Below the pieces are notes generated by a model. The model worked only from the letters and a program-made list of their open reading frames with translations, had not been told where the DNA came from and searched no databases. From an uncultured bacterium (lineage in GTDB: Bacteria > Verrucomicrobiota > Verrucomicrobiia > Verrucomicrobiales > DEV007), in NCBI GenBank assembly GCA_963977015.1, contig CAXBMO010000003.1, positions 160,001-224,000 of the forward strand: a DNA stretch of 64,000 nucleotides, given 5' to 3'. A program made the position numbers and the translations under genes. Positions 8,337-55,813 of the stretch are shown piece after piece. The first letter of the stretch is position 1. Every line of letters starts with the position of its first letter.

Positions 8337-9551
8337 CTAGTTCAGGGGCTCAGAACTATTGGTCTTCGGCGGAGAAACGGATCCATCAACCGGCAGTTGA
8401 GGTTCTGCGGAAGGCGACATGCTTCCCGACATCGAGCCGCTCAATGGAAGATCACGCACATCCAAATCCAATTCCATGACGCCGATGGCGGATTCGTGCC
8501 CCGGGCCACTACCCTCTGCGCTCTCGATGGCAAGAAACTCCATGACCTCCTCTCTGCTTGCCGGACGCAGGTGCTTATTTCGCATGACCCCCATCAAACC
8601 GGATTCCAGTTGCAGCCACGCCCATTCCTTGCCCTGCTCTTGAACCCGGCCCACTTTTCCTCCGTCCAGCTCAATCAAAAAGGTCTCGCTGGGGTCGATA
8701 TCGAAGACGTGAAATGGCGCTCCGCGTCCCTCAACTGCGCTGAACTCCATTTGTTTTCCGGTCCTGCTTACCTGACGAATGGGACCCGTTGCTTTCTCCT
8801 GCTCCCTTTCCGCAGTTGGATCTGTTTCAGACTTTCGCGAGGTTCGAGCGCGATTGGGATTGCGGGCTAACAGGAGGGCAAGTTTGGGTTCCTTTTCGCC
8901 TGACTTTGCGTTCCCGTTCTCCCCTCTGGCCTTCCGGGAGTCCAGTTTTGCCAAGAGCAAAAATGGCTGCGTGTTTTGGTCGGGTGATTTCTTTGGGACT
9001 GTAACGGGCTGGGGAGTGCTGGGTTTTTGGGGGCTAGTGGCAGGTTTTGGTGTCGGGATCGCCGCCTTGGACGCAATCAGAGTTTGAGGTTCGGTCTGTG
9101 CTTGCCGAAGGAGACGAGCCTTTTCTTCCTGATTTTCTTTTAATACCGCAAGCAGGGTACTACTCGGCGAACGAGCAGATTTGGTGGAGCGGGTTGCGGT
9201 GATGGATCGAAGTCGCTCAACCTCATAAGCAACGTCCATTTTACTGGTTAACTTCCCTTCCACCATTGTGGCGGGAATGAACGGCTTGGCCGGTTCCTGG
9301 TTGGTGAGGATGGCGTCGGCCGGATTAGGGGACGTTGTTGCTGGTGTGCTGTCGCCTTCGTTATCAGATGCGGTGATCTCCAGCGGTAGAATTCGAAAAC
9401 GATCCCGCAAGAAGTTAAGCCCAAGAATCTCACCAAGACTCTTCCGTTCTTGAGCGTTGTCCTCGGAAGTTTCGATCTCCGCACTCCATCCAGAAGCCAT
9501 TGCTGCGAGAGCAATGGCGTAAGCAAGGGTGATGAATTTAAGTTGGTTCAA
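8337..9551 (-). CDS. Secreted protein with C-terminal SH3b-like domain (paralogue 2 of 3)
   Basis: Signal peptide, P/T/K-rich middle, domain 'GKVGRVQEQGKEWAWLQLESGLMGVMRNKHL'. Confidence 0.75.
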   Translation of the reverse strand: MNQLKFITLAYAIALAAMASGWSAEIETSEDNAQERKSLGEILGLNFLRDRFRILPLEITASDNEGDSTPATTSPNPADAILTNQEPAKPFIPATMVEGKLTSKMDVAYEVERLRSITATRSTKSARSPSSTLLAVLKENQEEKARLLRQAQTEPQTLIASKAAIPTPKPATSPQKPSTPQPVTVPKKSPDQNTQPFLLLAKLDSRKARGENGNAKSGEKEPKLALLLARNPNRARTSRKSETDPTAEREQEKATGPIRQVSRTGKQMEFSAVEGRGAPFHVFDIDPSETFLIELDGGKVGRVQEQGKEWAWLQLESGLMGVMRNKHLRPASREEVMEFLAIESAEGSGPGHESAIGVMELDLDVRDLPLSGSMSGSMSPSAEPQLPVDGSVSPPKTNSSEPLN

Positions 9552-9596
9552 AAAAAAGGGGGGGCAAGTGTTTGACCAATCGTGCGCACCGAGATT

Positions 9597-11156
9597 TCAC
9601 TCCAGCGGTTCAGCCGCTTTCTCCGTCACGGGCTGTTCTGATTCTTCGGCGGCGGTGACTTCCATGGGTTCACTGGTCGTTTCGGACAGTGAAGGGAGTA
9701 GTCCTTCGCCCAAAAACATTCCGGCATCCGATACTTCTTCGGGAAGCTCTGGGAGATCGATTTCCACAAATTGCACAGGCTCCCGGCTACCGACCCCGGA
9801 GCCTGATTCCATTGCCAGAAAATTCATGACCTCGCTCTGTCTTGCGGGGCGGAGATGTTTTTTGCGCATGAGTCCCATCAGGCCGTCGTGCATTTCGAGC
9901 CAGGTCCAGTTCTCACCCGATCCGTGGGTGCGGCCCACCGCGCCTTGGCCGAGTTCGACCACAAAGGTATCTTCCGGCCCGCTGTCGATCACATGGAACG
10001 GAGCGCTGGAGACATCGATCGTGAAGTAGTTGGGATCGACTGGTCCGTCCGGAACGACTTGTTCCTTCTTGTCTTCCTCTTCCATGCTTTCATCATCAAT
10101 CGCCGCGACTTCGGTCGGTTCCGGCCGCTGCTGAAAGCTCAGCCACTTCTTCCACTTTCGATTGTCGGCTGGTTCTATCGACGCCAATTCAACAGGCGCC
10201 TCTTCTTCCGTGATCAGCTCTTCGTTCTCTTCGACTTCCGTCTCGGCGCTGGGCGGTTCAAAAAGACTCCTCAATCCTCGAAAAGCATATTTCGGGGACG
10301 AACTGGTTTCGTCTGCTTTTTCCTCTGGTTCTGGATCCTCAGCGGCCTCCGCAGATTCTTCCGTCTCCTTCGGCATCTCTGCCGGTTCCTGATTGTAGGA
10401 GACCAGCAAGGCTTCATTCTTCTTCTCGTCGAGATTTTCTTCGACCGACGCCACGGCTTCAACCTCCGGATTAGCCTTCGCAGCCTGGCCTCTCAATAAA
10501 ACGCCCAGCATTCGGGTCCGTGCCGGTTTCCCGTCCTTTGACGGAATTTCCTCCAGAATCGCAACCATCTCTTCCGCTTCCTGCTCTTCGTTAGGTTCAG
10601 GTGCTTTTTTGGTTCGCCACGGGAATCGAGCTTCGGAGACGGGTTCTTCCCCTTCTTCGGCTGGGCCGACATCGGCCACCGGTTCAGAATCAGGGGTGTT
10701 GTCCAGTCTCTCAACATTGGCTTCCTCACCCTCTTCCGGCTTGCTGGCGCGCCCCAAGGAGAAGCGGATGGTTCGGAGTTGCGGTTTGTCCGCCGTTTCC
10801 TGTTCCCTGGGCTCTCGGCGGGGCGCGGCAGTCTCTTTGGGTTGATTGACCGGCATTGGAGTGCCTGGAGTCCAATTGACAACAGCTCCCGTGGATGTCA
10901 CGAGGCGAAATTGCGGCGGCGGAGGTGCGGCCTGGTTTCGCGATGCCGGGTTTGCCGATACCTGCGGTAGGCTCGCGCTTTCCTGTCTCCCGATCTGAAC
11001 CGCCGCATCCTTCGCGGCTTTAAGTTGCCGGGCGCGCTGCAGCGCTGCCTCCTGTTGGCGACGCTCATACTCTTGCAAACCCGGATTCGATTGGGCGGGC
11101 AGCAGTTCGGCGCTGACCCAAAATAGGCAGCAAAGAAGGAGCAGAACAGGGTTCAT
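9597..11156 (-). CDS. Secreted protein with C-terminal SH3b-like domain (paralogue 3 of 3)
   Basis: Signal peptide, Glu-rich disordered middle, domain 'GAVGRTHGSGENWTWLEMHDGLMGLMRKKHL'. Confidence 0.75.
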   Translation of the reverse strand: MNPVLLLLCCLFWVSAELLPAQSNPGLQEYERRQQEAALQRARQLKAAKDAAVQIGRQESASLPQVSANPASRNQAAPPPPQFRLVTSTGAVVNWTPGTPMPVNQPKETAAPRREPREQETADKPQLRTIRFSLGRASKPEEGEEANVERLDNTPDSEPVADVGPAEEGEEPVSEARFPWRTKKAPEPNEEQEAEEMVAILEEIPSKDGKPARTRMLGVLLRGQAAKANPEVEAVASVEENLDEKKNEALLVSYNQEPAEMPKETEESAEAAEDPEPEEKADETSSSPKYAFRGLRSLFEPPSAETEVEENEELITEEEAPVELASIEPADNRKWKKWLSFQQRPEPTEVAAIDDESMEEEDKKEQVVPDGPVDPNYFTIDVSSAPFHVIDSGPEDTFVVELGQGAVGRTHGSGENWTWLEMHDGLMGLMRKKHLRPARQSEVMNFLAMESGSGVGSREPVQFVEIDLPELPEEVSDAGMFLGEGLLPSLSETTSEPMEVTAAEESEQPVTEKAAEPLE

Positions 11157-11254
11157 CGGTGCAGGCTATACCAAAATTTGACTGGTATCGCCAGTTTGAG
11201 TCGCAATTTTTTTAAAGAAATCAAAAGCGGGAATTTCACCGGCTCCACAGATTT

Positions 11255-12475
11255 CTACATAGCCATCTCGTAAATTCGCTGACAGGAATCCCTATTGATC
11301 TCCACCGGATTGAACTGAGCGGTCCATTGGGCCGCTGCTTCCTCGGCCAGTCCGGAAACGTTCTCTTCGGTAACTCCGAGATCACGGGCGGTTTTGTTCA
11401 AGCCGGACTTTTTGAGCAAGTCGAGGACTCGTTCTTCCAGTTGGGGATGGAGAGACTGATAAATTTTCGCCACCTCAGGGGCTTGTGAATTCCAGCGGAT
11501 CACATGTGGTAGCATCGTTCCCACCGCTTGCCCGTGGATGATTCCAAAATGGGCCGAAAGAGGATTTGCAGTAGAATGGGCGACTCCCAGCATGCTGCTC
11601 TCAATCGCTGTACCGGCGTAAGCGGCACCGAGTTGCATTCTGGCCCGTGCCTCCAAATCGTTGGGATTCGCCAACACTCTTTCAAACCCTTCGTTCAGCA
11701 GGTGGAAGGCAAGTCGGGAATACTGAAGAGAAATGTCGTTCCGCTTTTTGCAGACTGCGGTTTCCACGGCGTGGGCAATTGCGTCGATTCCGGTAAGTGC
11801 GGTGACGCGATTTGGCTGGGTAATGGTGAGTTCAGGATCGAGAATGGCGACCTTCGCGGCAGCTTTTTGATCGCCGCATGCCATTTTCATGTGAGTCGTC
11901 TCATCGGCAATCAAGGCAAAGGACTGGCACTCGGATCCGGTTCCTGAGGTGGTTGGAATCGCGATCATCGGGAGCATGGGTTTGGTGGCCTTTCCAACGC
12001 CCCAATAGTCCTTCATCTCGCCGCCATTGGTTAAGATGAAGTTGCAGCCCTTCGCGGTGTCCATACTGGAACCACCTCCCAATCCCACGATCAAATCCAC
12101 ATCCCCTTCCCTTGCGACACGGACGGCGCGCTCGACGTCCTTGGTGGTTGGGTTCTCCCGGACCTCGTCGAAGACAAGCACTTCGAGACCGGCTTCCTCC
12201 AGGTAGGCGATGGTTCTTGATTCGTGTCCAACAGCCCTCAGGCCCGGGTCGGTTACCAGAAGTGTCCGTTTGCCGCCAAGCTCCTTCGCCTTTACTCCGA
12301 GCTGTGCAAGCGAGCCCGCACCAAAGACGAGTTCGCCGCCAGGCAAATGCCCGAAATGGGCGACTGACCGCTCAACATCAAAATCTCCAACAAGCGCCTC
12401 GATGCTGATTGCCTTCGACTCCGTGGCATTTGGCTCACCACGAGGTCTGAACAAGGCGTTGAAAAGGCGCTTCAA
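11255..12475 (-). CDS. Iron-containing alcohol dehydrogenase
   Basis: 'GLGGGSSMDTAK', 'IPTTSGTGSE', metal ligands in 'DAIAHAVE', 'GVAH' and 'HG'. Confidence 0.92.
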   Translation of the reverse strand: MKRLFNALFRPRGEPNATESKAISIEALVGDFDVERSVAHFGHLPGGELVFGAGSLAQLGVKAKELGGKRTLLVTDPGLRAVGHESRTIAYLEEAGLEVLVFDEVRENPTTKDVERAVRVAREGDVDLIVGLGGGSSMDTAKGCNFILTNGGEMKDYWGVGKATKPMLPMIAIPTTSGTGSECQSFALIADETTHMKMACGDQKAAAKVAILDPELTITQPNRVTALTGIDAIAHAVETAVCKKRNDISLQYSRLAFHLLNEGFERVLANPNDLEARARMQLGAAYAGTAIESSMLGVAHSTANPLSAHFGIIHGQAVGTMLPHVIRWNSQAPEVAKIYQSLHPQLEERVLDLLKKSGLNKTARDLGVTEENVSGLAEEAAAQWTAQFNPVEINRDSCQRIYEMAM

Positions 12476-12480
12476 TGGAA

Positions 12481-13917
12481 TTAGGCGATGTTTTCAATCT
12501 GGAAGGAACGGCGAGCATACAGAAACTCGAACAGATTCCCCTCATGCGGTTGGTCCCATTTGAGGCGATTCGTCGGGACATTGCCCACATTCAGTCGGTC
12601 AATCGTTGGATGGGCAAAGAGCTTGTTGATCCACTCAAGATCCCGAGTGATGGCCGTGCAGACGAGAGATTTTCCAATGTGGCCGATCATTTCTTCCTGT
12701 GGAGCCTCAATCACCGATGCGAAAGGAAACAAGAATTCGCGAATCGCGAGTTCATGGTCCCAGTCTGGAACGCGCACAATCGTGGGGAGAAGGTAATTCA
12801 TGCCATCCCTTTGTTGATAGCGGTCGGTGCCGCGCAATTCGGCGGAAACATCCCGTGCCCCGTCTTTCAAGCCACTCTCCACCGCATCATTGATCCAATC
12901 CGCCATTTTGGGATTCGCAAATCCGCTCAATTTGGCTTCAGGATCGTCTTGCGCCTTGGGCTCGATCGCCAGCAGTTTCTTCGCAACCGCTTCCGCGATT
13001 TCGTCCCCATATTTCGGTGTGACAATGACGGAAACATTGATGCAGCTTCTCCCTGAATTGGCGCTGACGGACTCAACGATGGTATCGACGTATTTTTCCC
13101 AATTCTCGACCTCATCCTCGCCGATCAGGATCTTGGAGTAGCCGGTACCGTGAACCTCGATCCGGGGATCATGCTCGTATTGCAGGACCGTGTCGTCCCC
13201 TCCAAACAGCATCACCCTGCCGGCGCGCCGGATAATCGCTCCGGATCCATCATGTTGGGTGGGGTAAAAGCTAAAGGCTTCCGGAGGTGCTCCGGCTTTC
13301 TTCATCGCCTCGATGATTCGAATCGGGGTCCAGGGTTCCTCTCGTCCCGGCTTGAGAACCACGGGCACTTTCAGCGCAATCGACGGCGCCCAGAGGGCAT
13401 TCACGGCCGGTGAGTTGGAGGGAAGGATCACCCCAAGGCAATCCGTTAACGCGGCGAAACTGACGGGTGCGCCATTCTGTTCGCCATAACCCTTGTCGAG
13501 AATATTAAGATCCAACCCTCTCGTCAGGCCCTTGAGAATGACATCCGTCTGCGCCATGACGCCATGAAGTCGCTTGTGATTCATCCGAATCAGGCTGTGC
13601 GGCAGGCCGCTGGTCATGGCCAATTGCATCACATAGTCCTCAGGACTCTGCATGTCGCCATTGCAGCCGACCGGTAACGTGTCATTCAGAAAGATATCCG
13701 CCGCATTTTTGCAGATCTCGAGTAGTTCGGAGCATTTGAATTGGTTGAGCGCCTTGCGGGCTTCGCCGATTTTCAGGAGATCATGCTTGATCATGTCGGC
13801 GCATGCAAAGCTGACCTCCGCGGCGTCCTTATCACCGGCGACGTTGGTGACAACCTGGGTATCCAGGCTCTTGTAGACGCGCCCTTGACGCAAAATGGGG
13901 ATGTGAGGAACACTCAT
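12481..13917 (-). CDS. ALDH-superfamily protein, EhpG/LuxC-like (probable acyl reductase)
   Basis: 'LPSNSP', 'LKPG', catalytic Cys in 'NSGRSCINVS', 'EFLFP'. The usual 'LELGGK' is replaced by 'EVHGTGYSK'. Confidence 0.8.
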   Translation of the reverse strand: MSVPHIPILRQGRVYKSLDTQVVTNVAGDKDAAEVSFACADMIKHDLLKIGEARKALNQFKCSELLEICKNAADIFLNDTLPVGCNGDMQSPEDYVMQLAMTSGLPHSLIRMNHKRLHGVMAQTDVILKGLTRGLDLNILDKGYGEQNGAPVSFAALTDCLGVILPSNSPAVNALWAPSIALKVPVVLKPGREEPWTPIRIIEAMKKAGAPPEAFSFYPTQHDGSGAIIRRAGRVMLFGGDDTVLQYEHDPRIEVHGTGYSKILIGEDEVENWEKYVDTIVESVSANSGRSCINVSVIVTPKYGDEIAEAVAKKLLAIEPKAQDDPEAKLSGFANPKMADWINDAVESGLKDGARDVSAELRGTDRYQQRDGMNYLLPTIVRVPDWDHELAIREFLFPFASVIEAPQEEMIGHIGKSLVCTAITRDLEWINKLFAHPTIDRLNVGNVPTNRLKWDQPHEGNLFEFLYARRSFQIENIA

Positions 13918-13926
13918 GGCGCCGAC

Positions 13927-15144
13927 TTAGTAAACTCCTTCGATGATCTTCTTCTCAAGGAACCCGAATGGCCTTACGTCGCCAACTCCATCCCAGGCAA
14001 ACTTCGCATGAGGCTTCCGGCGGATTGCTTCATCCCGCTCCAAGAATCGCGGCATGAAGAATTCCTTGGTGAGAGTCGTGAGTTCCACGCGCCCGTATTC
14101 TCCGTAGTCCCGCGTGACTTCCGTTTTCTCGGGATCAACAATTCGCAAAATGGCACGGGGCTGTGGAGCCCAATAGGTGACCGAGTAGTCATTCTGGGGC
14201 AGCTCCTCGGGCACGCTCATCGCGAGCCCCATCAAAGTGTTTCCGTAAGTGGGAACGAACAGGGATTTTCCTTCGAGGACTTCCTCCTGAAGAAAGCGAA
14301 CATATTCCGGCGTCATTGAAGTTCCGCCACAGAAGCACCCCTTGATTCCATGATCGGGGATCGAGATGCGTTCGCCAATCGAGGCGAGCAGCTTCGGGGT
14401 CGTGAAAATGCAGGAAATGTCGCGATGCTTGATGATCTCAACCGCCTGGTTCATGACGTGGGCCTGGTAGCGCTCCACCTCATCCAATTGTTTGCGGCCA
14501 ATGAGTCGCTTCACCCAACGCGGGTCGAGATCGACGTGATAGCAGCTTCCCCCGCGGTAGTTGGCCAGATGCTCCACCGCAAGACGCAGGCGCCGCGGTC
14601 CGGTAGGTCCAACCATGATCCAATTTCCTCCCTTCGGAAAAAACTCGTCACTCAGGTTGTCGCCGAACTGCTCGTAGTCGTGCTTGTAATCGTCCCAACC
14701 GACGCGTTGCTTTGGCAGTCCGGTTGTCCCTCCCGTTTCGAAGACATTGAATGGTCTTCCGCCCATTCCTTTTGGCACGAATCGCTCGTTCTTCTCATCG
14801 CGAAGCCACTCGTCCTGAAAGTGATCGAACTTGATAATATCCTCGTAAGTTTTGATTTCTTCGCGAGGATCCCATCCTGATTTCTGTTTCCATTCCAACC
14901 AAAACGGACAACCGGTTTCATCGGAGAAATGCCAGTTGATCACCTCACGAAGGTGGTCATTCAGTTCGCTCCTGGCTTTGTCCACCGGATCTGACGAGGT
15001 GGATTCTGTGGGATTTGGGGTGTCGATCACAATCGGTGTTTGTTTTTCGTTTTCTGCTTCCGGTTCCGCTCCTGCTGCGGCTGACAATCCGCCTCCGTTG
15101 GGGGCAGCGTCTTCAGTTGATTTCTTTTTGCCGAGACCAAACAT
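13927..15144 (-). CDS. ANL-superfamily adenylating enzyme, EhpF/LuxE/PaaK-like
   Basis: P-loop 'FETGGTTGLPK', 'YGNTLMG' and 'ERD' motifs; short, with no obvious small C-terminal domain. Confidence 0.75.
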   Translation of the reverse strand: MFGLGKKKSTEDAAPNGGGLSAAAGAEPEAENEKQTPIVIDTPNPTESTSSDPVDKARSELNDHLREVINWHFSDETGCPFWLEWKQKSGWDPREEIKTYEDIIKFDHFQDEWLRDEKNERFVPKGMGGRPFNVFETGGTTGLPKQRVGWDDYKHDYEQFGDNLSDEFFPKGGNWIMVGPTGPRRLRLAVEHLANYRGGSCYHVDLDPRWVKRLIGRKQLDEVERYQAHVMNQAVEIIKHRDISCIFTTPKLLASIGERISIPDHGIKGCFCGGTSMTPEYVRFLQEEVLEGKSLFVPTYGNTLMGLAMSVPEELPQNDYSVTYWAPQPRAILRIVDPEKTEVTRDYGEYGRVELTTLTKEFFMPRFLERDEAIRRKPHAKFAWDGVGDVRPFGFLEKKIIEGVY

Positions 15145-15180
15145 GGCTCTAGTTCAATCAATCTCAAATTCGGTGGCCGC

Positions 15181-16758
15181 TTACGGGAAGAACTTGGCCA
15201 CGGTTTCATCACTTGGCGGTTTCGTCGCCAATGATCCAGCAATCATGGCCACGGCTCCGACCAACCACATGATAGCGACGGGTTTGATGCCGCCTCCAAA
15301 GGTGTATTCTCCGCCAAACCCCGAGACGACAAAGAAGATCAGCCAAGTGACAGTGACGGAAATCACGCAGGCGTAGGCACCCGCACGGGTGGCGCGTCTC
15401 CAGTAAAGGGCCGCAATCACCAGAGGGGTCAGCGCTGCGAAGCCCGAGAAACTCCAGATGGCCAGGTCAAAGACGTTCTGAACTTCTCTCAGGGCGAGCG
15501 AGAGAATAAAGGTGATCAGCACAATCCCGACAACAAAGCCTCTGGCGATGAGCAGGATTTGATTGTCGGTGTATTTCCTTTTGGCGTTGTGGAGGACAAT
15601 GTCGTTGGTGAACATCGTGCCCAAACACAGGAATTGGCTATCCAATGATGACATGATTGCTGCCAGGATTCCTGCCGTCACGAGCCCCACAACAATCGGA
15701 TTGGCCACCAAACCCTTGAGGGTCAGACTCAAGACAGCCCCCACGCTCGCATCCGGCAAGCCCTTGAGAAATGCCAATGGAGGCTTCGCAAACGCCTCGT
15801 TTCCTTCGACAAACCCACCGGTCGCCCAAAGCCCGATCAAGACACAGGGCACCCAGACGATCATGATACAAATCGGATGGGCAATGACCGTAAGCTTGAA
15901 TGCCTGGGCGCTTCTTGCCGTGAGCCAGTGCTGGAACAAGTGCGGAAACATTCCAACACTCAGGGGGATAAACATATAGGTCAGAAACATCAGTGGCGGC
16001 ACGCCGACTTCTCGGAGAAAGGTCCCTTCCTTGGTGACCACTTCGATTTCGGATGGCGTTCGCACCAGGTGCGCTGGGTTTGCCTGCTCGATTGCTGCCT
16101 GCAGTCCTCCCAATCCCTTCGAAATCAGCGTGAACGCAAGCACGCCCATGATCATGAAAACGATCGTTTGAAAGGTGTTGGCCCAGGCGGCGGCTCGTGA
16201 ACCACCGGCAAAAATATAGGTCAGAACCACCCCGCAGATCACCAAACCGATGAGCCAAGGTGGCAGTGAGCCGTCAGGCATGCCCATTCCCGGGAACAAG
16301 CCGCGTGATAGCGGTCCCAATACCCGGTAGGAGCCGATGACGCCGATCAGGAGGTAAGGGATGACGAGGAGCACCAAAATCGGAAACAGCAGGTAGCCGA
16401 AGGTGCTTGATTCGAATCTTCCCCTGAAAAACTGGATCTGCGTCACGTAGCCGTGGCGCTTCCCGATTGCCCAGAGTTTGATGCCGATGAAGAAGAAGCA
16501 GGCTGCATGAATCAGGCCGGAGGAGGAGGCCATTAATCCATAGGTGCCGACTCCCCGCTGAAACGCTTTTCCGGTGGAACCAACGAGGGCGAAGGCAGTC
16601 ATGGTCGTCCCGAAAACGGACATCAACAGCATGAACGGGCCGATCGAGTGGCTGGCGACAAAGTAGTCCTTGCTCGTCCCGCGGAAGAACGTTTTGGAGA
16701 AAAGGGCCAGCCCCAGGAGCAGCCCCAGATAAATCGCGATAACGATGATCGATTGCAT
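15181..16758 (-). CDS. Sodium:solute symporter (SSS family)
   Basis: About 13 TM helices; 'DYFVASHSIGP' and 'AAIMSSLDSQ' SSS signatures. Confidence 0.92.
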   Translation of the reverse strand: MQSIIVIAIYLGLLLGLALFSKTFFRGTSKDYFVASHSIGPFMLLMSVFGTTMTAFALVGSTGKAFQRGVGTYGLMASSSGLIHAACFFFIGIKLWAIGKRHGYVTQIQFFRGRFESSTFGYLLFPILVLLVIPYLLIGVIGSYRVLGPLSRGLFPGMGMPDGSLPPWLIGLVICGVVLTYIFAGGSRAAAWANTFQTIVFMIMGVLAFTLISKGLGGLQAAIEQANPAHLVRTPSEIEVVTKEGTFLREVGVPPLMFLTYMFIPLSVGMFPHLFQHWLTARSAQAFKLTVIAHPICIMIVWVPCVLIGLWATGGFVEGNEAFAKPPLAFLKGLPDASVGAVLSLTLKGLVANPIVVGLVTAGILAAIMSSLDSQFLCLGTMFTNDIVLHNAKRKYTDNQILLIARGFVVGIVLITFILSLALREVQNVFDLAIWSFSGFAALTPLVIAALYWRRATRAGAYACVISVTVTWLIFFVVSGFGGEYTFGGGIKPVAIMWLVGAVAMIAGSLATKPPSDETVAKFFP

Positions 16759-16779
16759 AGGTGGATTCGCGATTTGGAA

Positions 16780-16998
16780 TTAAACGTCTTGTCCGTCCGC
16801 CCACTTTTCCAGCCGGGTCGGCCAAGCGAACTTCATGACCAAGGCCCAGAAAACGGCGGCCATGATGGAGTAGGTGGCGTGGTAAAACAGCCCCACCGGC
16901 ATAAAGCCCATGATCAGGTCTGAGTTATCCCAATTCCAGCTATCCTGGTGAAGGACAGCAAAGAGAATAAATACCGCTACAATGATTTTCGTCTTCAT
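16780..16998 (-). CDS. DUF3311-like small membrane protein (SSS partner)
   Basis: 72 aa, two TM segments, 'LHQDSWNW...GFMPVGLFYH...WP'; directly upstream of the SSS gene. Confidence 0.75.
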   Translation of the reverse strand: MKTKIIVAVFILFAVLHQDSWNWDNSDLIMGFMPVGLFYHATYSIMAAVFWALVMKFAWPTRLEKWADGQDV

Positions 16999-17060
16999 GC
17001 GCTAGAAGGAAACGTCCTTCCCGGGGGTTTGGAGAAATCAAGAAAGTGCCGATTGGCGGC

Positions 17061-18641
17061 TTACTCTCCGAAAGCATACAGATGGGTTTGGGTGGTGACG
17101 TACAATACGCCATTCGCAGCCACGGGGCTGGAGTAGATCGGAGCCGGAAAATCGACGGTCATCAGGACTTCCTTGCTCTTCACCTTGCCGTCACCATCCG
17201 CGTCGGCATCCTTCGAAGCTTTGATGACAATCAATTCTCCGTCTTCATTACCAAGGTAAACTTTCCCATCGGCCACGAGACTGGATCCCCAAATGTGGCT
17301 GAGGGTGTCGTGAACCCAATAGAGCTCACCCGTATTGGCATCGAGGCAATGAAGCACGCCGGAATAGTCGGCAATAAAGAGCAGGCCGTCATCGGTCACC
17401 GAAGGTGTTGAAATGGTCCTTTTTATGCCGTCGTAGGTCCAAATTGCACCGGATGGATTCGCAACTTCGCCTTCCGCGTCGGCGCTGATACAGCTCAATA
17501 GGCCAACGCCTTCACCGTGTTCTGGATCCTGTCCGATCGCGGCATAGATTTTTCCGTTGTGATAGACTGGGGTGGCGATGAATTCGCTGGGTCCAGGGTA
17601 GGTGGCATACTTCACCTTCTCGCCGGAGTCGTTGACCCGATACTCTTTCTTATTGCCGTCATAACGAAAGACTTCCGGAAGAATGTCGAAACCCTCTTCA
17701 TCTTTGACGGTTTCAGGTTTGAATCCGTAAACGAAGCCGTCACCGGCGCCAAATAGAACCATTTTTTTGTCCTTGTGCTCAACGTAACCTGGTGAGCCCC
17801 AGTTGCAGTGCATGACGCGTTGGCCAATGCCGGATCCCTCTTCCCCGACGAGCTCTCCAGTTTCCTTGTCCAGCGCCACGAGGCAGGGCGAAAGCGGGGC
17901 TGGAATGTTGATGTGTGACCAATCCACACCGTTCGAAGTCGAGGCGAAGATGTGTTTTCCGTCGGTGGCGACCGAAGAGCTGGTCACGTTGTGGGGAAAA
18001 ACGCCAAGCTCACTGCGGAGGTCGAATCCCCAGATGATGTCAGCATCGTTTTCGCCCTGTTCAACCAGAGCCACATTCGCCTTACCATCCAGCCCCTTCG
18101 CTGCATACTCAGCTTCTTCCGTGAAAGGGCCGGCGTTGCCGTCAGCGAGGCCGTTCATATCAAAACAAAGCACTTCGCCCCGGTTGGTTACCACGTAACC
18201 CTTCCCGTCATCAATGAGCGGGGAGGAACACATGCCCAAAAACTCCCAGTCAGACACCTTGCCTGCTCCAAGCTTCGGTGTTGTGAGTTGCCAGAGGTAA
18301 CCACCGGTCGCCTCGTCGAAACACATGATGACTCCACGATCTCCAATGATTCCAGGATTTCTCGGTTCCTCATTATTGGTCCCGACAAGCACCTTTCCTT
18401 CCCCTATTGTCGGCGTTCCGTAGGTCTGCGATCCGAGTTTCGCCACCCATTTCAGCCCCTTGGCCGACGCGGTGATTTCTTCGAGGGTTTTCCCTTCGCC
18501 GGCATCCATTTCAGCTGGAAGTCCAGTAACCGGGGAAACCATGTTCTTGCTGTTGTCGCGGCCCCACTGTTTCCAGTCGGCATAGGCGGTTGAGGTGATT
18601 GCAACAGCAATTGCTGTTTTCAGAATGGCGGTTTTGTTCAT
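17061..18641 (-). CDS. PQQ-binding-like beta-propeller protein, exported
   Basis: Signal peptide, 'DWKQWGR', repeated 'CxDAxTG..W' and 'SSP' blades. Confidence 0.88.
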   Translation of the reverse strand: MNKTAILKTAIAVAITSTAYADWKQWGRDNSKNMVSPVTGLPAEMDAGEGKTLEEITASAKGLKWVAKLGSQTYGTPTIGEGKVLVGTNNEEPRNPGIIGDRGVIMCFDEATGGYLWQLTTPKLGAGKVSDWEFLGMCSSPLIDDGKGYVVTNRGEVLCFDMNGLADGNAGPFTEEAEYAAKGLDGKANVALVEQGENDADIIWGFDLRSELGVFPHNVTSSSVATDGKHIFASTSNGVDWSHINIPAPLSPCLVALDKETGELVGEEGSGIGQRVMHCNWGSPGYVEHKDKKMVLFGAGDGFVYGFKPETVKDEEGFDILPEVFRYDGNKKEYRVNDSGEKVKYATYPGPSEFIATPVYHNGKIYAAIGQDPEHGEGVGLLSCISADAEGEVANPSGAIWTYDGIKRTISTPSVTDDGLLFIADYSGVLHCLDANTGELYWVHDTLSHIWGSSLVADGKVYLGNEDGELIVIKASKDADADGDGKVKSKEVLMTVDFPAPIYSSPVAANGVLYVTTQTHLYAFGE

Positions 18642-18743
18642 TGGTCGATCTCTGGAAAAGTAGGTTTGGAAAACAAAGTGCCGAAATACTCAAAAAGGGA
18701 TATTTCGGAAGGCCTGCATGGGGCCGTCAATTCAAAGGGGGCT

Positions 18744-21023
18744 CTAGTTTTGGGTGATTTCGATGTTGTCGATGAAAACGCTCTTTTGGCTCTGTGGAGA
18801 GAAGCCGAACAATCCGGGGGCACCCTTCTTGTGGGCCTTCTTGTGCTCGACTTCGATTGTCCAAGTATCAGGCTCGCCCGTTCCCTTTTCCCAAGCTTTT
18901 GCGCGAACCACTCCCGAGCCGTCATCGTTGAGGTCGACCCGCATCTTCAACGTATACCAACTGTTTGCCTTGATCGGGAAACTGACGCTCTGCTTCACTC
19001 GTTCGTGATTTGAGCTCACCTCAAGAAGGTTTGAGTTTCCAATCAAGGAGCAGTTGTAGCGTTGGTTGATTAATCCCACCGTGGATTTCACCCGCCGGTT
19101 TCCATCCGTCATCAAATCGGCCTGGATCGTATAATTGCTGGAGTCAGGGTGTCCGATAAAGCTCTGGCAACGCTGAAAGAGGATGTTGTCCAACGTTTTG
19201 GCCAGGACCTTGTTGCCATCCAAATCGCGAACTTCCCACTTCAAGCGCGCGCCAATCCAAGGCAGTGGTGGAAAGGAGAATTTAAAACCCTCCGCATGGT
19301 CAACCGTGAGATCATAGCTCTCAAAATCCTCCGAAATTGGCAGAGCTTCGATCACTCTTCCACGAACAAAACCCGACTTGCCATCTGCGGTCCCCTTGAA
19401 CATTCCCGCCGATTCCGAAGCGGATTCGGTTGCAACCAAGACACCTTGATCGTCAAAGTCCGCGTCCAGTTTCGCCTTCACCTTCGCAGTAGGCGGAATG
19501 AACTTCTCCCACGTGGCTGAGGAGACTTCCCCGACTGCGTTTCCGTTGGCGTCTACCGACGTAATTAAGAAATCGACTTTGTCGCCGGGTTCGAGCAAGA
19601 CATCCGAAGGCACCGCCCGAATTCCTGTCACGGGTCCCTTCACGATGGGCTCAGACTTGGGAAGGTCTCCCCAGGTGATGCCGTCGTTCTCGAACTTGAA
19701 CGCGTAAAGTTTGCTCATCGTGTGGACATAGACCCAGCCATTGCAAACAGCGGGCGAACCGAGGCAATTCCCTTCCATGGGGATCTTGTGGAGAATCTCC
19801 GGGCCTTCGTCACTTGGGCGAATCACGAAGAGCTTCTCCAGATTCATCGGAACAATCAGGAGACCGTCCACATAGGCCGGTGAAGCATGCAGTTGACCGG
19901 TATCCAGTTTTTCATGCCAAAGAATTTCTCCGGTATCAGCCACCATGCAGAACAATTCTCCTTCGTGCGAAACCTGATAAACGCGATCTCCCACCAGGAC
20001 CGGGGAGCTGGTGAACATTCCGAACGGCTGGCGCCACCGTTCGACACCCTCCTCAATCCGCGGCGCCCCTTTCTGCATGGGGTCAACCACGCCTCCTGAA
20101 TTGGCGTCGTCGCTTGGTAAATTCAGGGCGAACATCCGACCAATCTCCGTGGTATCCAAATTCTCCTTGCCGTGAACTCCAATGAGTTTGTCTCCGTGGA
20201 TGAGAACCGAAGAGTTGATTCCGCCCATCGACATCTGGTAGCGCCACAGAGGTTTTCCGTCAGCCAGATTTACGCAAACCAAGTTACCGCATCCGGTGCC
20301 GGCGTAAAATACCTGGCGCCCGTTGCGAACCGTCACGACCGGCGAAGAAAAACTGGTGTCCTTGAGAAAGGGCGGGCCCACTCCCGGGGTTGAAGACCAA
20401 ACCAATTCCCCGGTGTTCTTATCAAAGCCAAAAAAGCGATCTCGCGCAGGACCGTCCGCTCCCCAGTAACTGGTCACAGCCCGGGTGATGAGCAAATCGT
20501 CGACGATGACGCATGAACCAGCTCTTCCGTTGGGGAACGTCAGTCGCCCAAAGCGCTCCATCATGGAAATCTCCCAGAGAAGGTTTCCATCCCGGTCGTG
20601 ACAATTCAGCAGCCCATAAGTTGTATGGAGAAAAATATTCCCCGTCTCCGGATCCACAACTGGTGCACCGATCGCGTAACGATCGTAAACCGTGTCACTG
20701 ATGAAATCGCTGAAGGTTCGCTCCCAGATCACCTTGCCCGTTAACGGGTCCAAGGCGGACAAAACTTCCTCCAGATCCGGACCTGATCCGCGATAGCCCC
20801 ATGAATACATCTGCCCATCGTGAATGACCGGTGTCCCACGACCTGCAATTTCCCGGGTCCAAGCGGGTTCAGGATTGAATTTTCCGTTTTCATACTGCTC
20901 TAAACTTACCCCCGTTTGAAGAGGGCCACGCCAGTGCAGCCAGTTACCTTTGTGGGGATCCTCCTGAGCAAGCAAAGCAAGTGGGAGGAGAAGGAATGTA
21001 ATGGTCGAGGTTTTGAAGATCAT
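18744..21023 (-). CDS. PQQ-binding-like beta-propeller protein with extra C-terminal beta-sandwich domains, exported
   Basis: Signal peptide, 'NWLHWRGP', Trp-docking blades; C-terminal ConA/laminin-G-like strand pattern ending 'FIDNIEIT'. Confidence 0.85.
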   Translation of the reverse strand: MIFKTSTITFLLLPLALLAQEDPHKGNWLHWRGPLQTGVSLEQYENGKFNPEPAWTREIAGRGTPVIHDGQMYSWGYRGSGPDLEEVLSALDPLTGKVIWERTFSDFISDTVYDRYAIGAPVVDPETGNIFLHTTYGLLNCHDRDGNLLWEISMMERFGRLTFPNGRAGSCVIVDDLLITRAVTSYWGADGPARDRFFGFDKNTGELVWSSTPGVGPPFLKDTSFSSPVVTVRNGRQVFYAGTGCGNLVCVNLADGKPLWRYQMSMGGINSSVLIHGDKLIGVHGKENLDTTEIGRMFALNLPSDDANSGGVVDPMQKGAPRIEEGVERWRQPFGMFTSSPVLVGDRVYQVSHEGELFCMVADTGEILWHEKLDTGQLHASPAYVDGLLIVPMNLEKLFVIRPSDEGPEILHKIPMEGNCLGSPAVCNGWVYVHTMSKLYAFKFENDGITWGDLPKSEPIVKGPVTGIRAVPSDVLLEPGDKVDFLITSVDANGNAVGEVSSATWEKFIPPTAKVKAKLDADFDDQGVLVATESASESAGMFKGTADGKSGFVRGRVIEALPISEDFESYDLTVDHAEGFKFSFPPLPWIGARLKWEVRDLDGNKVLAKTLDNILFQRCQSFIGHPDSSNYTIQADLMTDGNRRVKSTVGLINQRYNCSLIGNSNLLEVSSNHERVKQSVSFPIKANSWYTLKMRVDLNDDGSGVVRAKAWEKGTGEPDTWTIEVEHKKAHKKGAPGLFGFSPQSQKSVFIDNIEITQN

Positions 21024-21094
21024 AGAAAAAGCGATCTGAGCTTGTGGAGGGGTTTTCCAACAGATGGTGGTCAGTTGGACAAAAAATCGTTGCG

Positions 21095-21123
21095 ACGCTA
21101 GTAGGGCCGAATTCTGGATGCAA
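21095..21123 (-). promoter_or_regulatory. Putative sigma70 promoter of the 21023-11255 operon
   Basis: Minus strand TTGCAT (21123-21118), 17-nt spacer, TAGCGT (21100-21095). Confidence 0.45.
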
Positions 21124-21190
21124 GAGCAGATTTATCTTAGCTGCTCAAAGGGGGCTGAATGGGGATTCCCAGCCAAGATGGAAACACCAG

Positions 21191-21883
21191 TTAATAACCG
21201 TGGCGCAAGTGTCGCCAGATCGAAAAGCGCTCACTTCTGCCATCGCTGCCTCGCCGGGTTCCTTGCCAGCTCACGGTATCGTTCGATAATTGCTTTTTCA
21301 GGAACACTTCAGCCGTCCTGGAAGGACCGTCATACTCATCGAAATAGAGTTGGCCGGTGCGTGGGTTGACGCCCTCAAGCATGGCGTAATGATCGGCACC
21401 TTGCCGATTAGGTGGCGCGAAATAGTAGAGGCCAATCACGGTGTTCGAATCCAACCAGCGAAGGGCAACCTTCATCTGATCTCTGCCCGTGTATCCGTGG
21501 TAGAACTGAGCAGGCGAATCAAACTCCATGTAAAATGACGAGATCTCGCGCAGGGCAAAAAACGCATTCAATTCGTATTCCTGTCGCCCCATCCCCAGCG
21601 CCAGACCCTCCCGGAGATCCAGCAGGTCTGCGCCAGCCGGCCCCAGGAATGACTGCACGACTTGGATTCGCCGATCCAGTCGCTCGAGATCCGGGGTATC
21701 GGTTCGGTCATCCCAAAGCGGATCGATCCTCGGTCCATAAAGAAAGCCCTCAAAAAAGTTCGTAAACTCGTTGCGTTCCCTCCCCTCGCCATAACCCATC
21801 GGGCCGGCGTTGCTTTGAAACGGAATCAAGAGGGCCGCAGAAACCGCCCAAACCTGCAATTGAAGTGCTGTTATTGTGTTCAT
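21191..21883 (-). CDS. Hypothetical exported protein
   Basis: 230-aa ORF with a signal-peptide-like N-terminus filling the gap between known genes; beta-rich C-terminus. Confidence 0.6.
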   Translation of the reverse strand: MNTITALQLQVWAVSAALLIPFQSNAGPMGYGEGRERNEFTNFFEGFLYGPRIDPLWDDRTDTPDLERLDRRIQVVQSFLGPAGADLLDLREGLALGMGRQEYELNAFFALREISSFYMEFDSPAQFYHGYTGRDQMKVALRWLDSNTVIGLYYFAPPNRQGADHYAMLEGVNPRTGQLYFDEYDGPSRTAEVFLKKQLSNDTVSWQGTRRGSDGRSERFSIWRHLRHGY

Positions 21884-22049
21884 GGCATCTATTTTTCCTA
21901 AAGGCCAAGTGCACGAAAGGCAACTGATTCAACCTGAACAAAAGGGCTGCATTGTTGGTCTTTCCTTGCTTGTCGTGTCGCATTCATGCCAATTTTCCCT
22001 TCAGAAAGGCTAGATTGACCGCCCCACTTCTCCCAAACTCTTAGTCACG

Positions 22050-23507
22050 ATGAAAGACCCCCAAAAACCCAAAAACACCTTCTGCGGCACTACCCGGCGG
22101 GATTTTTTAAGCTCTGTCGGAGGCGGGTTTACCAGCACTGCGTTGACCGGCATGCTTGCAGCGGACGGCTTTTTCAATTCCGCCACCGGTGCGACGGCGA
22201 ACCCGCTGTCCGCGCGGGCACCCCAGCGCTCCGGCCGTGCAAAATCGGTTATTTTCCTCTTCATGTATGGCGGACCAAGCCACATCGACACTTTTGACTA
22301 CAAGCCTTCGATGTATGGAATGGATGGCAAGACGATCGATGTCAAAACGTTCGGTCGTGGGGGGCGCAAAAACCAAGGGCGAATCGTCGAACCCAAATGG
22401 AAGTTCAAGCAATACGGAGAATGTGGGAAATGGGTGAGTGATCTGTTCCCGAATGTGGGCACCTGCGTCGATGATATCGCGTTCCTGCATTCCATGACCG
22501 CAGACTCTCCGATCCACGGATCAGCCCTTTTGATGATGAATTGTGGTTCCGTCATCAGCGGCAAGCCTTCGCTCGGGAGCTGGGTCAACTATGGACTCGG
22601 CAGTGTAAACGAGAATCTTCCCGGATATGTCGTGATGCTCGATAAGTCGGGTGGGCCGATCTCGGGAGCCAAAAACTGGACCAGCGGCTTCATGCCGGCT
22701 GGCTATCAGGGAACCGTGTTTCGCAGTCAGGGAGATCCCATTCTCAACCTGAAAAATGTGAAGGGAATGGCCGATCAGGAACAGCGGATCCTTATCGATT
22801 CCTTGAACCAGTTGAACAACGACCATCTGCAGAAGCGCTACGACAACACCAACCTCTCGGCGAGGATCTCCAGCTACGAATTGGCTTATCGAATGCAGGC
22901 GACGGCTCCCGAGGCGATTGATCTCGAGCAGGAAACCGAGGAAACCCAAAATCTTTACGGGTTGAACCATCCGAAAACCGAAGACTTTGGCAAGAAGTGC
23001 CTGATGGCGCGGCGTTTGGTTGAGCGCGGAGTCCGCTTCATCCAGCTTTATTCAGGCGGCGCTCACAATGACCACAACTGGGATGCGCACGGCGACCTCG
23101 AGAACAATCACAATCATCACGCCGGTGCGACCGACAAACCGATCGCCGGTCTGCTCAAGGACTTAAAGCGTCGCGGATTGCTGGAAGATACTCTCGTGGT
23201 ATGGGGCGGAGAATTCGGCCGCCAACCAACGGCCGAGTACGCCAAGGGCACGGGACGCGACCATAACAGTTACGGATTTACCATGTGGATGGCTGGAGGT
23301 GGCGTCAAAGGTGGTGTTAGTGTTGGGAAGACGGATGAACTTGGAAGCGCAGCGGTAGAGAACCGTTATCACGTCCGGAATCTGCATGCCACGATCCTCG
23401 ATCTTCTCGGTTTTGATCCCAATCATCTCACCTTTTTCCATGGGGGCCTCGATCACCGTTTGGTCGGAGTCGAAGGCGGTGAGTCGATTCCTGAGGTCAT
23501 CGCCTAG
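22050..23507 (+). CDS. DUF1501 domain protein (Tat-exported)
   Basis: 'TRRDFL' Tat motif; 'AKSVIFLFMYGGPSHIDTFDYKP', 'WDAH', 'GEFGR' and 'GRDH'. Confidence 0.92.
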   Translation: MKDPQKPKNTFCGTTRRDFLSSVGGGFTSTALTGMLAADGFFNSATGATANPLSARAPQRSGRAKSVIFLFMYGGPSHIDTFDYKPSMYGMDGKTIDVKTFGRGGRKNQGRIVEPKWKFKQYGECGKWVSDLFPNVGTCVDDIAFLHSMTADSPIHGSALLMMNCGSVISGKPSLGSWVNYGLGSVNENLPGYVVMLDKSGGPISGAKNWTSGFMPAGYQGTVFRSQGDPILNLKNVKGMADQEQRILIDSLNQLNNDHLQKRYDNTNLSARISSYELAYRMQATAPEAIDLEQETEETQNLYGLNHPKTEDFGKKCLMARRLVERGVRFIQLYSGGAHNDHNWDAHGDLENNHNHHAGATDKPIAGLLKDLKRRGLLEDTLVVWGGEFGRQPTAEYAKGTGRDHNSYGFTMWMAGGGVKGGVSVGKTDELGSAAVENRYHVRNLHATILDLLGFDPNHLTFFHGGLDHRLVGVEGGESIPEVIA

Positions 23508-28722: not shown

Positions 28723-29709
28723 ATGCGCTCTGTAGTATTGCTACTGTTGTTCCAGATCTCGGTCTGTGTGGGCGAGGAGCTTGCGCGTCAGGAATTTCCC
28801 ACCAATTACGCTCCCGCCCCGGACATCCGGGCGGCACTTGAAGAGGTGCTTTCACCGGAGGGGCGCTTTGTGGTGCTGGGCAATAAGGGCAAAGTCCTGG
28901 TGATTGATCGTGCAGCTCATCTGAAAGCTGCTTCGGAGGCTCTCTCCGCGATGGATTCCCCAAACCCTGAGGTTCAACTTAGTCTGGGAGTCAGGACCGG
29001 TGGCCAGCGCCGTCCCTCGGGCAACACGAATGTTCTGGGGCCAGTCCAATCACGCTCAAGTTTTCCGTTTCCGACTGAATTCGATCCACCACGTATTCTG
29101 GTTGGTCCAAATGGAACCTATGCGGTGATTCCCGCGCATCCCAAGAATTTTCAACGGCGCAACCTTGGGGTGACGATGGAGACTGATGCAACCATCAACC
29201 CGGACGGGAGCATCAACCTTTCCATCAATCGGGAGGATGTAGAGTTCCAGGGCTTCATCAACTACGGCTCGCCCATTCTCTCTTTGGGGAACGCCGCTTC
29301 GATGCCGATTCTCAATCAAACCGGCAATCCGATGTTTTTTGCCCCCTTCATCACGGAGAACAAGATTTTGGTGCCCATTTTTGAAACGACCCGCATCGCA
29401 ACCTCAGTCGTCGTTTATCCTCAGCTTCAGGATGACTTCGTTCGTTTGCATCTTCTCCCGGAGCTAAGCGTAAGTGAGGAGGAGATGGGATGGAAGAATC
29501 GTCGAATCCAGCTTCGAGAATTTCGGACGGTCATTGACCTCCAAAATGGCAAGGTCGCGACACTTTCCGGCTTTACCGGCGCGCCCAAGGATTTTGGAGA
29601 GCATTTTTTCAGCACGGCGAATGAGGCTGATGGGGCTACACAAATCGTCCTGAAGGCACAGGTTCGTCCAGCAAAGAGTCCGGAGAAGAGGGAACAACTC
29701 AAGGATTGA
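28723..29709 (+). CDS. Short secretin-like protein (N3-type domain + secretin beta region)
   Basis: Signal peptide; 'APDIRAALEEVLSPEGRF..LVID' N-domain; 'RNLGVTME..VEFQGFINYGSPI..PIFETTRIATSV'. Confidence 0.6.
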   Translation: MRSVVLLLLFQISVCVGEELARQEFPTNYAPAPDIRAALEEVLSPEGRFVVLGNKGKVLVIDRAAHLKAASEALSAMDSPNPEVQLSLGVRTGGQRRPSGNTNVLGPVQSRSSFPFPTEFDPPRILVGPNGTYAVIPAHPKNFQRRNLGVTMETDATINPDGSINLSINREDVEFQGFINYGSPILSLGNAASMPILNQTGNPMFFAPFITENKILVPIFETTRIATSVVVYPQLQDDFVRLHLLPELSVSEEEMGWKNRRIQLREFRTVIDLQNGKVATLSGFTGAPKDFGEHFFSTANEADGATQIVLKAQVRPAKSPEKREQLKD

Positions 29710-31852: not shown

Positions 31853-32006
31853 GGGCGGGGTTCAGGAACTGGAACGACCCTAGAAGTTTTCGAATCCGGC
31901 AACAAGGATGTTTTCTGCCCGGCAGAATTCGCAAAATTGATAAAGAGTTCTTCAAGCTCTCGCAAAATTGACATTATCTGCTTCCAAAGTAATTTATGAC
32001 TTTGTC

Positions 32007-46551: not shown

Positions 46552-46646
46552 AGGCCGATGATGTTTGGCCATTTGATGCTGATTGGCCAGCGAAATTTGC
46601 GTTCGTTGTCGCTGCCAGGATCGGTCAAAAAGGGTTTAACCGCACG

Positions 46647-47330: not shown

Positions 47331-47343
47331 GGCGTGGGTTGGT

Positions 47344-50820: not shown

Positions 50821-50823
50821 GCG

Positions 50824-51867: not shown

Positions 51868-51882
51868 GGTGATTGTTTGGGG

Positions 51883-53156: not shown

Positions 53157-53215
53157 GGCAGGCCATCGTAACAGAATGGTAGTTACATGGTATTCAAAAA
53201 GAAGATTTTTTCGCC

Positions 53216-54010: not shown

Positions 54011-54028
54011 GGTGAGGCAAGGCCCAAC

Positions 54029-54760: not shown

Positions 54761-54769
54761 GGTTACCGA

Positions 54770-55660: not shown

Positions 55661-55813
55661 TTGCCCGAACACTAATGCAACTCCTCACGTCGTAAACCCC
55701 GAGTTTATGGCAGTATCGAATTCTAACTTTGACATGGCATTAGCTGCCGTAGTAAAGGGAGCTTTCCAGCGTTCCGCCAAAACCCATTAGCCTCAACCAA
55801 CGTCATTTTTCAG

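Follow-up and report, generated by a model that had tools for sequence, protein, structure and literature searches.

The DNA studied here, a window of 64,000 nucleotides (nt) from the genome of an uncultured bacterium of the Verrucomicrobiota, carries a putative operon that may encode a system for the uptake and ATP-dependent reduction of a carboxylic acid. ORF calling (ORF, open reading frame) on the window yields seven frames lying head to tail on the minus strand between positions 11255 and 21023, which are separated by 102, 62, 21, 36, 9 and 5 nt in 5'->3' gene order (Table 1). Scans with the Pfam and NCBIfam models assigned the products to families: two exported propellers with pyrroloquinoline quinone (PQQ) repeats are followed by a small DUF3311-like membrane protein, a sodium/solute symporter (SSS), an ANL enzyme related to EhpF, a member of the aldehyde dehydrogenase (ALDH) superfamily related to EhpG and an iron-dependent alcohol dehydrogenase (Fe-ADH). 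An earlier annotation made from the letters of the DNA alone, here called the sequence-only reading, had described seven co-oriented genes with gaps of 5-102 nt, and the ORF coordinates agree with this description throughout. No curated family, name or paper describing the operon was found in Pfam and NCBIfam, in the protein atlas or in the literature searches.

Table 1. Features of the putative operon, listed in 5'->3' gene order with the family evidence (aa, amino acids); the last row gives the promoter-like string.
Feature	Position in window	Strand	Evidence
759-aa exported PQQ-repeat propeller	18744..21023	(-)	PQQ_2, 90.8 bits
526-aa exported PQQ-repeat propeller (prop526)	17061..18641	(-)	PQQ_2, 71.3 bits
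72-aa DUF3311-like small membrane protein	16780..16998	(-)	PF11755, 29.3 bits
SSS transporter	15181..16758	(-)	PF00474, 107.9 bits
EhpF-like ANL enzyme, 405 aa	13927..15144	(-)	EhpF homology; AMP-binding, 29.7 bits
EhpG-like ALDH-superfamily protein, 478 aa	12481..13917	(-)	Aldedh, 76.4 bits; EhpG homology
Fe-ADH (group III)	11255..12475	(-)	PF00465, 175 bits; ADH_Fe_C, 102.9 bits
TTGCAT-N17-TAGCGT string	21095..21123	(-)	present; agrees with the sigma-70 consensus at 6 of 12 positions

The ANL protein is, judged by its sequence, a true end-to-end homolog of EhpF. The structures of EhpF (3hgu/3l2k) were its sole match in the PDB (E 3.8e-47, residues 59-405 aligning with residues 21-369), the identity amounts to about 32% (tblastn), and both proteins end with a common C-terminal IEGVY motif. 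The sequence-only reading had proposed this kinship together with the retention of the P-loop, and both hold, the P-loop FETGGTTGLPKQR being invariant across 16 aligned homologs. Identities to 15 aligned homologs range from 61 to 83%, and the gene is single-copy in the window's genome. The Pfam AMP-binding model gives a partial match that falls just short of its cut-off (29.7 vs 29.9 bits). In ANL enzymes the C-terminal domain carries out thioester formation; this domain was not detected in the EhpF-like protein by Pfam, and since the terminus of the protein coincides with that of the 369-aa EhpF, it probably lacks the domain altogether. Homologs are named "hypothetical" or "AMP-binding" in the protein atlas and "PaaK-like" in JGI sources; most of them have 351-354 aa. 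Residues 1-55 of the window ORF form a low-complexity N-terminal extension that is common only to the closest relatives, and the true start codon of this 405-aa ORF is uncertain.

The ALDH-like protein has its closest relative in EhpG, the ALDH adjoining ehpF on a plasmid of Pantoea agglomerans (25% identity, 121 bits, E 4e-34 over the 440 residues 37-476), in line with the kinship suggested by the sequence-only reading; solved ALDHs score at most 57 bits in a sequence search of the PDB. A PH(E/D)G..EFL motif near the C-terminus is common to the two proteins. The sequence-only reading had also noticed that the catalytic Cys is kept within NSGRSC and that EVHGTG stands where LELGG is found in hydrolytic ALDHs. 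An alignment with the ALDH 2d4e bears this out: Cys292 of NSGRSC aligns with the catalytic Cys, Asn168 of the PxN motif is retained and His256 of EVHGTG replaces the hydrolytic Glu of ELGG, all three residues being invariant among 27 orthologs. The position of the catalytic Glu is occupied by His in this clade, by Gln in EhpG and by Tyr in a haloarchaeal homolog. Because the hydrolytic Glu is absent, the EhpG-like ALDH should act as a thioester reductase. Its structural model (predicted local distance difference test, pLDDT, 89.7) shows the full ALDH fold and superimposes on canonical ALDHs with template modeling (TM) scores of 0.73-0.79 at 14-18% identity; the gene is single-copy in the window's genome. 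The Fe-ADH encoded by the last gene reaches no NCBIfam equivalog cut-off (best ErcA, 267 bits vs 550), and its best PDB matches are an NAD(P) methanol dehydrogenase, 1,3-propanediol oxidoreductase and FucO.

Moreover, the genes for the EhpF-like and the ALDH-like protein travel together. They were found in 31 and 32, respectively, of 41 relatives, and among the 30 near-complete relatives (at least 90% complete, at most 5% contaminated) both are present in 22 and both missing in 8, i.e., the two genes agree in all 30. This co-occurrence holds even in genomes in which the genes lie far apart. Adjacent pairs of AMP-binding and ALDH genes are also seen in the Pantoea ehp cluster and in plasmid clusters of Streptomyces goshikiensis and Burkholderia ubonensis, the latter two neighboring genes for 3-deoxy-D-arabino-heptulosonate 7-phosphate (DAHP) synthase and for proteins of the aminodeoxychorismate-/anthranilate-synthase family; a Halalkalicoccus plasmid carries the genes as SSS, EhpF-like, ALDH. 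Furthermore, structure prediction for residues 55-405 of the EhpF-like protein together with the ALDH-like protein returned a complex with ipSAE values of 0.75, 0.78 and 0.79 (best of three controls: 0.00). The mark applied to ipSAE is attained by 116 of 157 solved complexes and by 2 of 215 mismatched pairs, a calibration that is approximate as own alignments were used. The runs agree in at least 71% of the contacts with a partner pLDDT of at least 90, and the prediction supports, short of demonstrating it, that the EhpF-like and ALDH-like proteins bind each other. The EhpF-like family comprises 216 clusters at E <=1e-30 in a library of 1.84 billion proteins, and three much longer proteins among the 150 best matches listed were scanned for fusions. 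One consists of a class-III aminotransferase fused to an EhpF-like domain (P0161, 824 aa), the second of a Zn-dependent alcohol dehydrogenase fused to such a domain (P0223, 725 aa), and the third had no Pfam match. Judging from these domain assignments, fusions to aldehyde-using partners would fit an aldehyde as the product.

These data also bear on a CoA-dependent route resembling that of SauT and SauS, in which the EhpF-like protein would ligate the acid to CoA and the ALDH-like protein would act, in reverse and on free acyl-CoA, as a CoA-acylating ALDH, with no direct acyl transfer between the two. We consider such a route improbable. The best NCBIfam match of the ALDH-like protein is indeed CoA-acylating methylmalonate-semialdehyde dehydrogenase, albeit at 43.2 bits against a cut-off of 448.5, the name "PaaK-like" points in the same direction, and the sulfoacetate pathway (SauU, SauT, SauS) provides a catabolic precedent; however, the ANL protein shows no detected C-terminal thioester-forming domain and is confidently predicted to form a complex with its partner. 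The sulfoacetate version would furthermore be left without its next enzyme, since the best match to Xsc in the window's genome stays below the cut-off (326.9 bits vs 676.4).

A separate observation concerns a plasmid of Streptomyces angustmyceticus, on which an EhpF-like gene (locus L111, 7944-9026) is annotated as "arylcarboxylate reductase". It lies amid futalosine-pathway-like genes, its neighbors including those for 1,4-dihydroxy-6-naphthoate synthase, MqnE and MqnC, and no ALDH gene is annotated in the 17 kb shown. The basis of this name could not be traced, with no NCBIfam model behind it and no use in the literature searched.

The conservation of the operon was assessed in a scan of 185,579 species genomes, one genome per species, of which at least 598 carry confirmed EhpF-like relatives. 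The synteny counts for the propellers, SSS, ALDH and Fe-ADH given here and below refer to the best 80 loci among these relatives, and the denominators are the loci long enough to tell. The 80 loci come from Verrucomicrobiales, Opitutales/Opitutaceae, Chthoniobacterales, Limisphaerales/Pedosphaera, Chthonomonadaceae, Armatimonadia and one metagenome-assembled genome of the Omnitrophota. The order two propellers, DUF3311 and SSS, EhpF-like, ALDH, Fe-ADH recurs across orders of the Verrucomicrobiota and in Chthonomonadaceae, and because the same gene order is found again in other orders and in another phylum, the arrangement lies far beyond chance. Synteny elsewhere was one of the tests that the sequence-only reading had set for its proposal, and the order is indeed found across orders and in the Armatimonadota. 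In 46 of 75 loci the EhpF-like gene is followed by the ALDH gene and in 35 of 66 by an Fe-ADH gene, and an SSS gene lies upstream of it in 29 of 73. Five products were scored (both propellers, SSS, ALDH and Fe-ADH): 13 of the 45 fully informative loci have all of them and 39 at least one. A divergent MarR gene is located upstream in 12 loci and an extracytoplasmic function (ECF) sigma factor gene in 7. Next to stand-alone EhpF-like and unlinked ALDH genes, no further conserved partner appeared among the neighbors examined apart from the Fe-ADH, which stays beside the ALDH in 4 of 8 unlinked-ALDH loci. The distribution is patchy: next to the 31 carriers of the EhpF-like gene among the 41 close relatives, there are 5 carriers among 301 genomes of at least 90% completeness sampled evenly from the phylum and 13 among 121 genomes in the phylum of a Chthonomonadaceae genome. 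Between the two phyla the EhpF-like proteins are 62-68% identical, a degree of similarity that would fit strong constraint, transfer of the operon or both.

Transport seems to be an integral part of the operon, as the sequence-only reading had assumed. The SSS covers positions 1-404 of the 406 profile positions of PF00474 and reaches no NCBIfam equivalog cut-off (PutP, PanF, MctP); it shares 27% identity with the SSS that adjoins the EhpF-like/ALDH pair of haloarchaea and is likely a carboxylate importer. The 72-aa protein encoded before it matches PF11755 just below the cut-off of 30 bits (E 8.7e-07), and a DUF3311 homolog precedes the SSS in all 29 of the 29 SSS-bearing loci. In seven loci a major facilitator superfamily (MFS) transporter takes the slot of the SSS immediately upstream of the EhpF-like gene, and the families that it matches best, albeit weakly, are the aromatic-acid/H+ symporter (AAHS) and sialate/H+ symporter families. 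Since the slot is always occupied by some transporter, either SSS with DUF3311 or MFS, transport is probably part of the function. A study on Sinorhizobium fredii describes co-regulation of a DUF3311 gene with that of the pyruvate symporter MctP under pyruvate use (PMC9100948). Next to these findings, the SSS itself varies within the slot: at a locus of the same genus (L031, 6468-7958) the flanking genes are 90-92% identical to those of the window, the SSS 54% and the DUF3311 protein 68%, and more distant loci carry an SSS that is 72-80% identical to the window's. These identities suggest that this one slot of the operon has seen an exchange between two SSS subtypes.

The two exported propellers can be described by fold only in general terms. 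The 759-aa protein has an N-terminal signal-like sequence followed by a propeller (residues ~30-460), a small beta domain (465-557) and a C-terminal beta-sandwich (560-759) in a model with a pLDDT of 87.6. Its best Foldseek matches are tetrathionate hydrolase, BamB, designed Cake proteins and a PQQ-dependent alcohol dehydrogenase, with TMq values of 0.35-0.39. The beta-sandwich is well conserved and belongs to no Pfam family; 3 of 25 members gave a weak match to Polysacc_lyase, the best one with E 0.005. The 526-aa propeller (prop526) likewise begins with a signal-like sequence, and its sequence matches in the PDB are designed propellers and BamB only. PQQ-dependent alcohol or glucose dehydrogenases were considered and rejected, the propellers remaining far below the quinoprotein cut-offs (TIGR03075: 38.1 and 25.8 bits vs 480) with a PF01011 match that spans a single repeat (40 of 595 positions). 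No specific enzyme emerged from the sequence and fold searches with the propellers, which are generic PQQ-repeat/BamB-like folds. In seven loci (L064, 11653-14135; L018, L073, L076, L087, L095, L110) a third, smaller PQQ_2 propeller of ~380-440 aa follows the Fe-ADH, after which comes a HemN-like radical SAM gene; in other loci a small propeller lies upstream of the 759-aa propeller gene. The window has neither the small propeller nor the HemN-like gene behind its Fe-ADH.

Only generic folds being matched, the propellers might be functionally separate from the reductase and merely travel with it, serving envelope biology in a BamB-like manner or another uptake task. They are absent upstream in 15 of 53 informative loci, none lies near the haloarchaeal and actinomycete EhpF-like/ALDH pairs, and one 96%-complete relative has a prop526 homolog (57% identical) with no match to the EhpF-like or ALDH-like protein. 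Nevertheless, 38 of the 53 loci, from several orders and from Chthonomonadaceae, have both propeller genes directly upstream of the EhpF-like gene and co-oriented with it, and the prop526 homolog, which was found in 33 of the 41 relatives, is absent from the two families that also lack the reductase. Taken together, a separate function of the propellers appears rather unlikely.

The homologies, motifs, synteny, co-occurrence, predicted complex and fusions are the computed basis from which we infer the chemical steps and the way they run, and likewise the import and what the propellers do. We lean slightly towards the view that the operon serves to take up a carboxylate and to reduce it, with ATP and NAD(P)H but independently of phosphopantetheine, to the aldehyde and further to the alcohol. 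First, the exported propellers would bind or release the substrate outside the cytoplasm, and the acid would be imported by the DUF3311/SSS pair or, in other lineages, by the MFS transporter in the same slot. In the cytoplasm the EhpF-like enzyme would form the acyl-adenylate, from which the acyl group would move to Cys292 of the bound EhpG-like ALDH; as a thioester reductase the latter would release the aldehyde by hydride transfer from NAD(P)H, and the Fe-ADH would finally turn the aldehyde into the alcohol.

Several points weigh against this reading. The confident interface of the predicted complex comprises, on the ALDH side, a family-specific N-terminal arm (residues 17-19 and 37-48) and residues 230 and 246; because Cys292 lies outside these confident contacts, the interface gives no support for channeling. 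The success of the prediction could also stem from the model's memory of a solved LuxC-LuxE-type complex. Moreover, hydrolysis might still proceed with His256 as the base. Parts of the module are often not found in cis, the Fe-ADH missing in 31 of 66 and the SSS in 44 of 73 loci, with the EhpF-like gene standing alone in 6 of the 45 fully informative ones, and since the 96%-complete relative has the prop526 homolog but no match to the EhpF-like or ALDH-like protein, the propeller can exist without the reductase. Furthermore, the EhpF/EhpG precedent for a reductase is itself only a published proposal, and there is no evident benefit in spending ATP to reduce an imported acid.

The same enzymes could instead work oxidatively and conserve energy, leading from the alcohol via the aldehyde and a Cys-thioester to the free acid and ATP, with the transporter exporting the acid. 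The EhpF-like enzyme would then run backwards, starting from the acyl-enzyme and AMP and subsequently using pyrophosphate. An ALDH without the hydrolytic Glu would need an acceptor other than water for its thioester, the relatives of the Fe-ADH include methanol and 1,3-propanediol dehydrogenases able to oxidize alcohols, AMP-forming acyl-CoA synthetases are reported to run in reverse in some syntrophs, and the sequence-only reading had already allowed for this direction. However, the chemistry proposed in EhpF/EhpG-type biosynthetic clusters is the reduction of aryl acids, the SSS and AAHS-like MFS relatives import acids, and the aminotransferase fusion fits an aldehyde made from an acid. Although the sequence features as such favor neither direction, we give the oxidative alternative little credence and keep to carboxylate reduction.

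The hints on the substrate of this proposed reduction conflict with each other. By analogy, the EhpF-type clusters, the MarR regulators and the AAHS-like MFS suggest an aromatic acid, which is also suggested by the "arylcarboxylate reductase" label on Streptomyces plasmid homologs among mqn-like genes. Other analogies, namely the Fe-ADH relatives, which according to NCBIfam and the PDB include methanol, 1,3-propanediol, lactaldehyde, sulfoacetaldehyde and choline enzymes, and the MctP-type SSS/DUF3311 pairs, suggest a small functionalized aliphatic acid.

With regard to transcription, the sequence-only reading had placed a promoter, TTGCAT-N17-TAGCGT, ahead of the first gene. The string is present at the position given in Table 1, but it is no evidence of a promoter: it agrees with the sigma-70 consensus TTGACA/TATAAT at 6 of 12 positions and is not among the three promoter-like sites picked by a scan of positions 9400-22100, for which shuffled sequences led to expect 5.1. 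A scan for terminators, which overall did not rise above the shuffles, found no terminator-like site on the minus strand immediately past the Fe-ADH gene. Two low-complexity Pro/Glu-rich proteins are encoded directly downstream on the same strand, at positions 8337-9551 and 9597-11156, with a gap of 98 nt between the Fe-ADH gene and the nearer ORF and of 45 nt between the two ORFs. Neither matches any Pfam family, and both share a C-terminal stretch of ~65 residues (FHV.D..P..TF..EL..G.VGR...G..W.WL....GLMG.MR.KHLRPA...EVM.FLA.ES). Farther away, the minus strand at positions 44581-55672 carries genes for a fusion of a class II aldolase with a short-chain dehydrogenase/reductase (SDR) (663 aa), for a DeoC/LacD aldolase and for a partial ALDH, whose match covers only profile positions 20-232 in a 300-aa ORF adjoining a 243-aa ORF without a family; several large ORFs of this run are without a family as well (ORFs of at least 100 aa scanned). 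The run might represent a sugar- or aldehyde-handling locus with a split or divergent ALDH. Finally, a second SSS-family protein (717 aa) adjoins a protein with a CAP12/Pycsar-type TIR effector domain at positions 29699-32966.

The reduction of carboxylates is thermodynamically hard, and the known enzymes are the large carrier-dependent carboxylic acid reductases (CARs), the tungsten aldehyde oxidoreductases and those of the Lux system. Should the EhpF/EhpG-type pair be a self-contained reductase, acids could be converted to aldehydes and alcohols by a small system that needs no carrier. Tentatively, and with more doubt than confidence, the operon may represent a widespread, uncharacterized pathway of free-living Verrucomicrobiota, some Armatimonadota and perhaps Planctomycetota, in which capture or release by propellers and a swappable transporter are combined with a carrier-free two-protein reductase and an Fe-ADH yielding an alcohol. 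If true, EhpF/EhpG-type reductases would for the first time have a physiological role outside antibiotics, and they would provide a compact new class of carboxylate-reducing biocatalyst. The conserved uptake operon hints at an unrecognized use of organic acids by abundant soil and water bacteria, and the identity of the substrate would assign a function to some of the exported PQQ-repeat propellers, which are very numerous in these phyla.

Compared with known systems, the window shares with MctP/DUF3311 of S. fredii the placement of the SSS gene beside a DUF3311 gene (PMC9100948). The window's SSS differs in scoring 39.5 bits against the MctP cut-off of 625 and is therefore not an MctP ortholog. 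The SauU/SauT/SauS sulfoacetate pathway is a catabolic precedent for the import of an acid, its activation with ATP and its reduction to an aldehyde, but it proceeds via a CoA thioester and ends at Xsc, whereas the ANL protein described here appears to lack the thioester-forming domain and no Xsc over the cut-off was detected in the genome. The A-T-R type of CARs (Nocardia CAR and fungal ATRR) converts an acid with ATP and NAD(P)H to the aldehyde, which ATRR reduces further to the alcohol. The same net reaction is proposed for the window pair, but this would be achieved by two separate proteins with an ALDH-fold reductase; neither a PP-binding carrier domain nor an SDR-type reductase domain was detected by Pfam in the seven operon proteins.

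In the LuxE/LuxC system an ALDH-superfamily reductase receives the acyl group on a Cys from a short ANL-type enzyme within a complex, and the same logic is proposed for the window pair, for which a complex is likewise predicted. The sequence-only reading had also called the two proteins LuxE-like and LuxC-like, but membership of these families is not supported: the LuxE (PF04443) and LuxC (PF05893) models have no match at E <=10 to the ANL or the ALDH-like protein, LuxE has none at E <=1 anywhere in the window's own genome, the sole LuxC match in that genome sits on another contig and LuxC is absent from the top Foldseek matches of the ALDH-like model. It had further stated that the window has no phz or luxAB genes, and among the 50 ORFs of the window that were scanned, each 100 aa or longer, no match to a phz or luciferase Pfam family appeared. 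What is upheld in silico of its overall proposal is thus an acid activation and reduction of the EhpF/EhpG type tied to transport. Given the homology to EhpF and EhpG and the lack of a match to the LuxE/LuxC models, the pair is by sequence of the EhpF/EhpG kind and resembles Lux in the proposed mechanism only.

EhpF and EhpG belong to the D-alanylgriseoluteic acid phenazine cluster of Pantoea, and their role as a reductase is reportedly a proposal made in the structure paper by Bera et al. from 2010. Both partners are homologous to the window pair, the genes are adjacent and nearly abutting, and the ALDH keeps the Cys and lacks the Glu in both cases. In contrast to the Pantoea cluster, from which the window pair is separated by identities of only about 32% and 25%, respectively, and whose phenazine genes have no counterpart in the window, the operon described here belongs to a highly conserved clade and adds a transporter, an Fe-ADH and exported propellers to the common pair.

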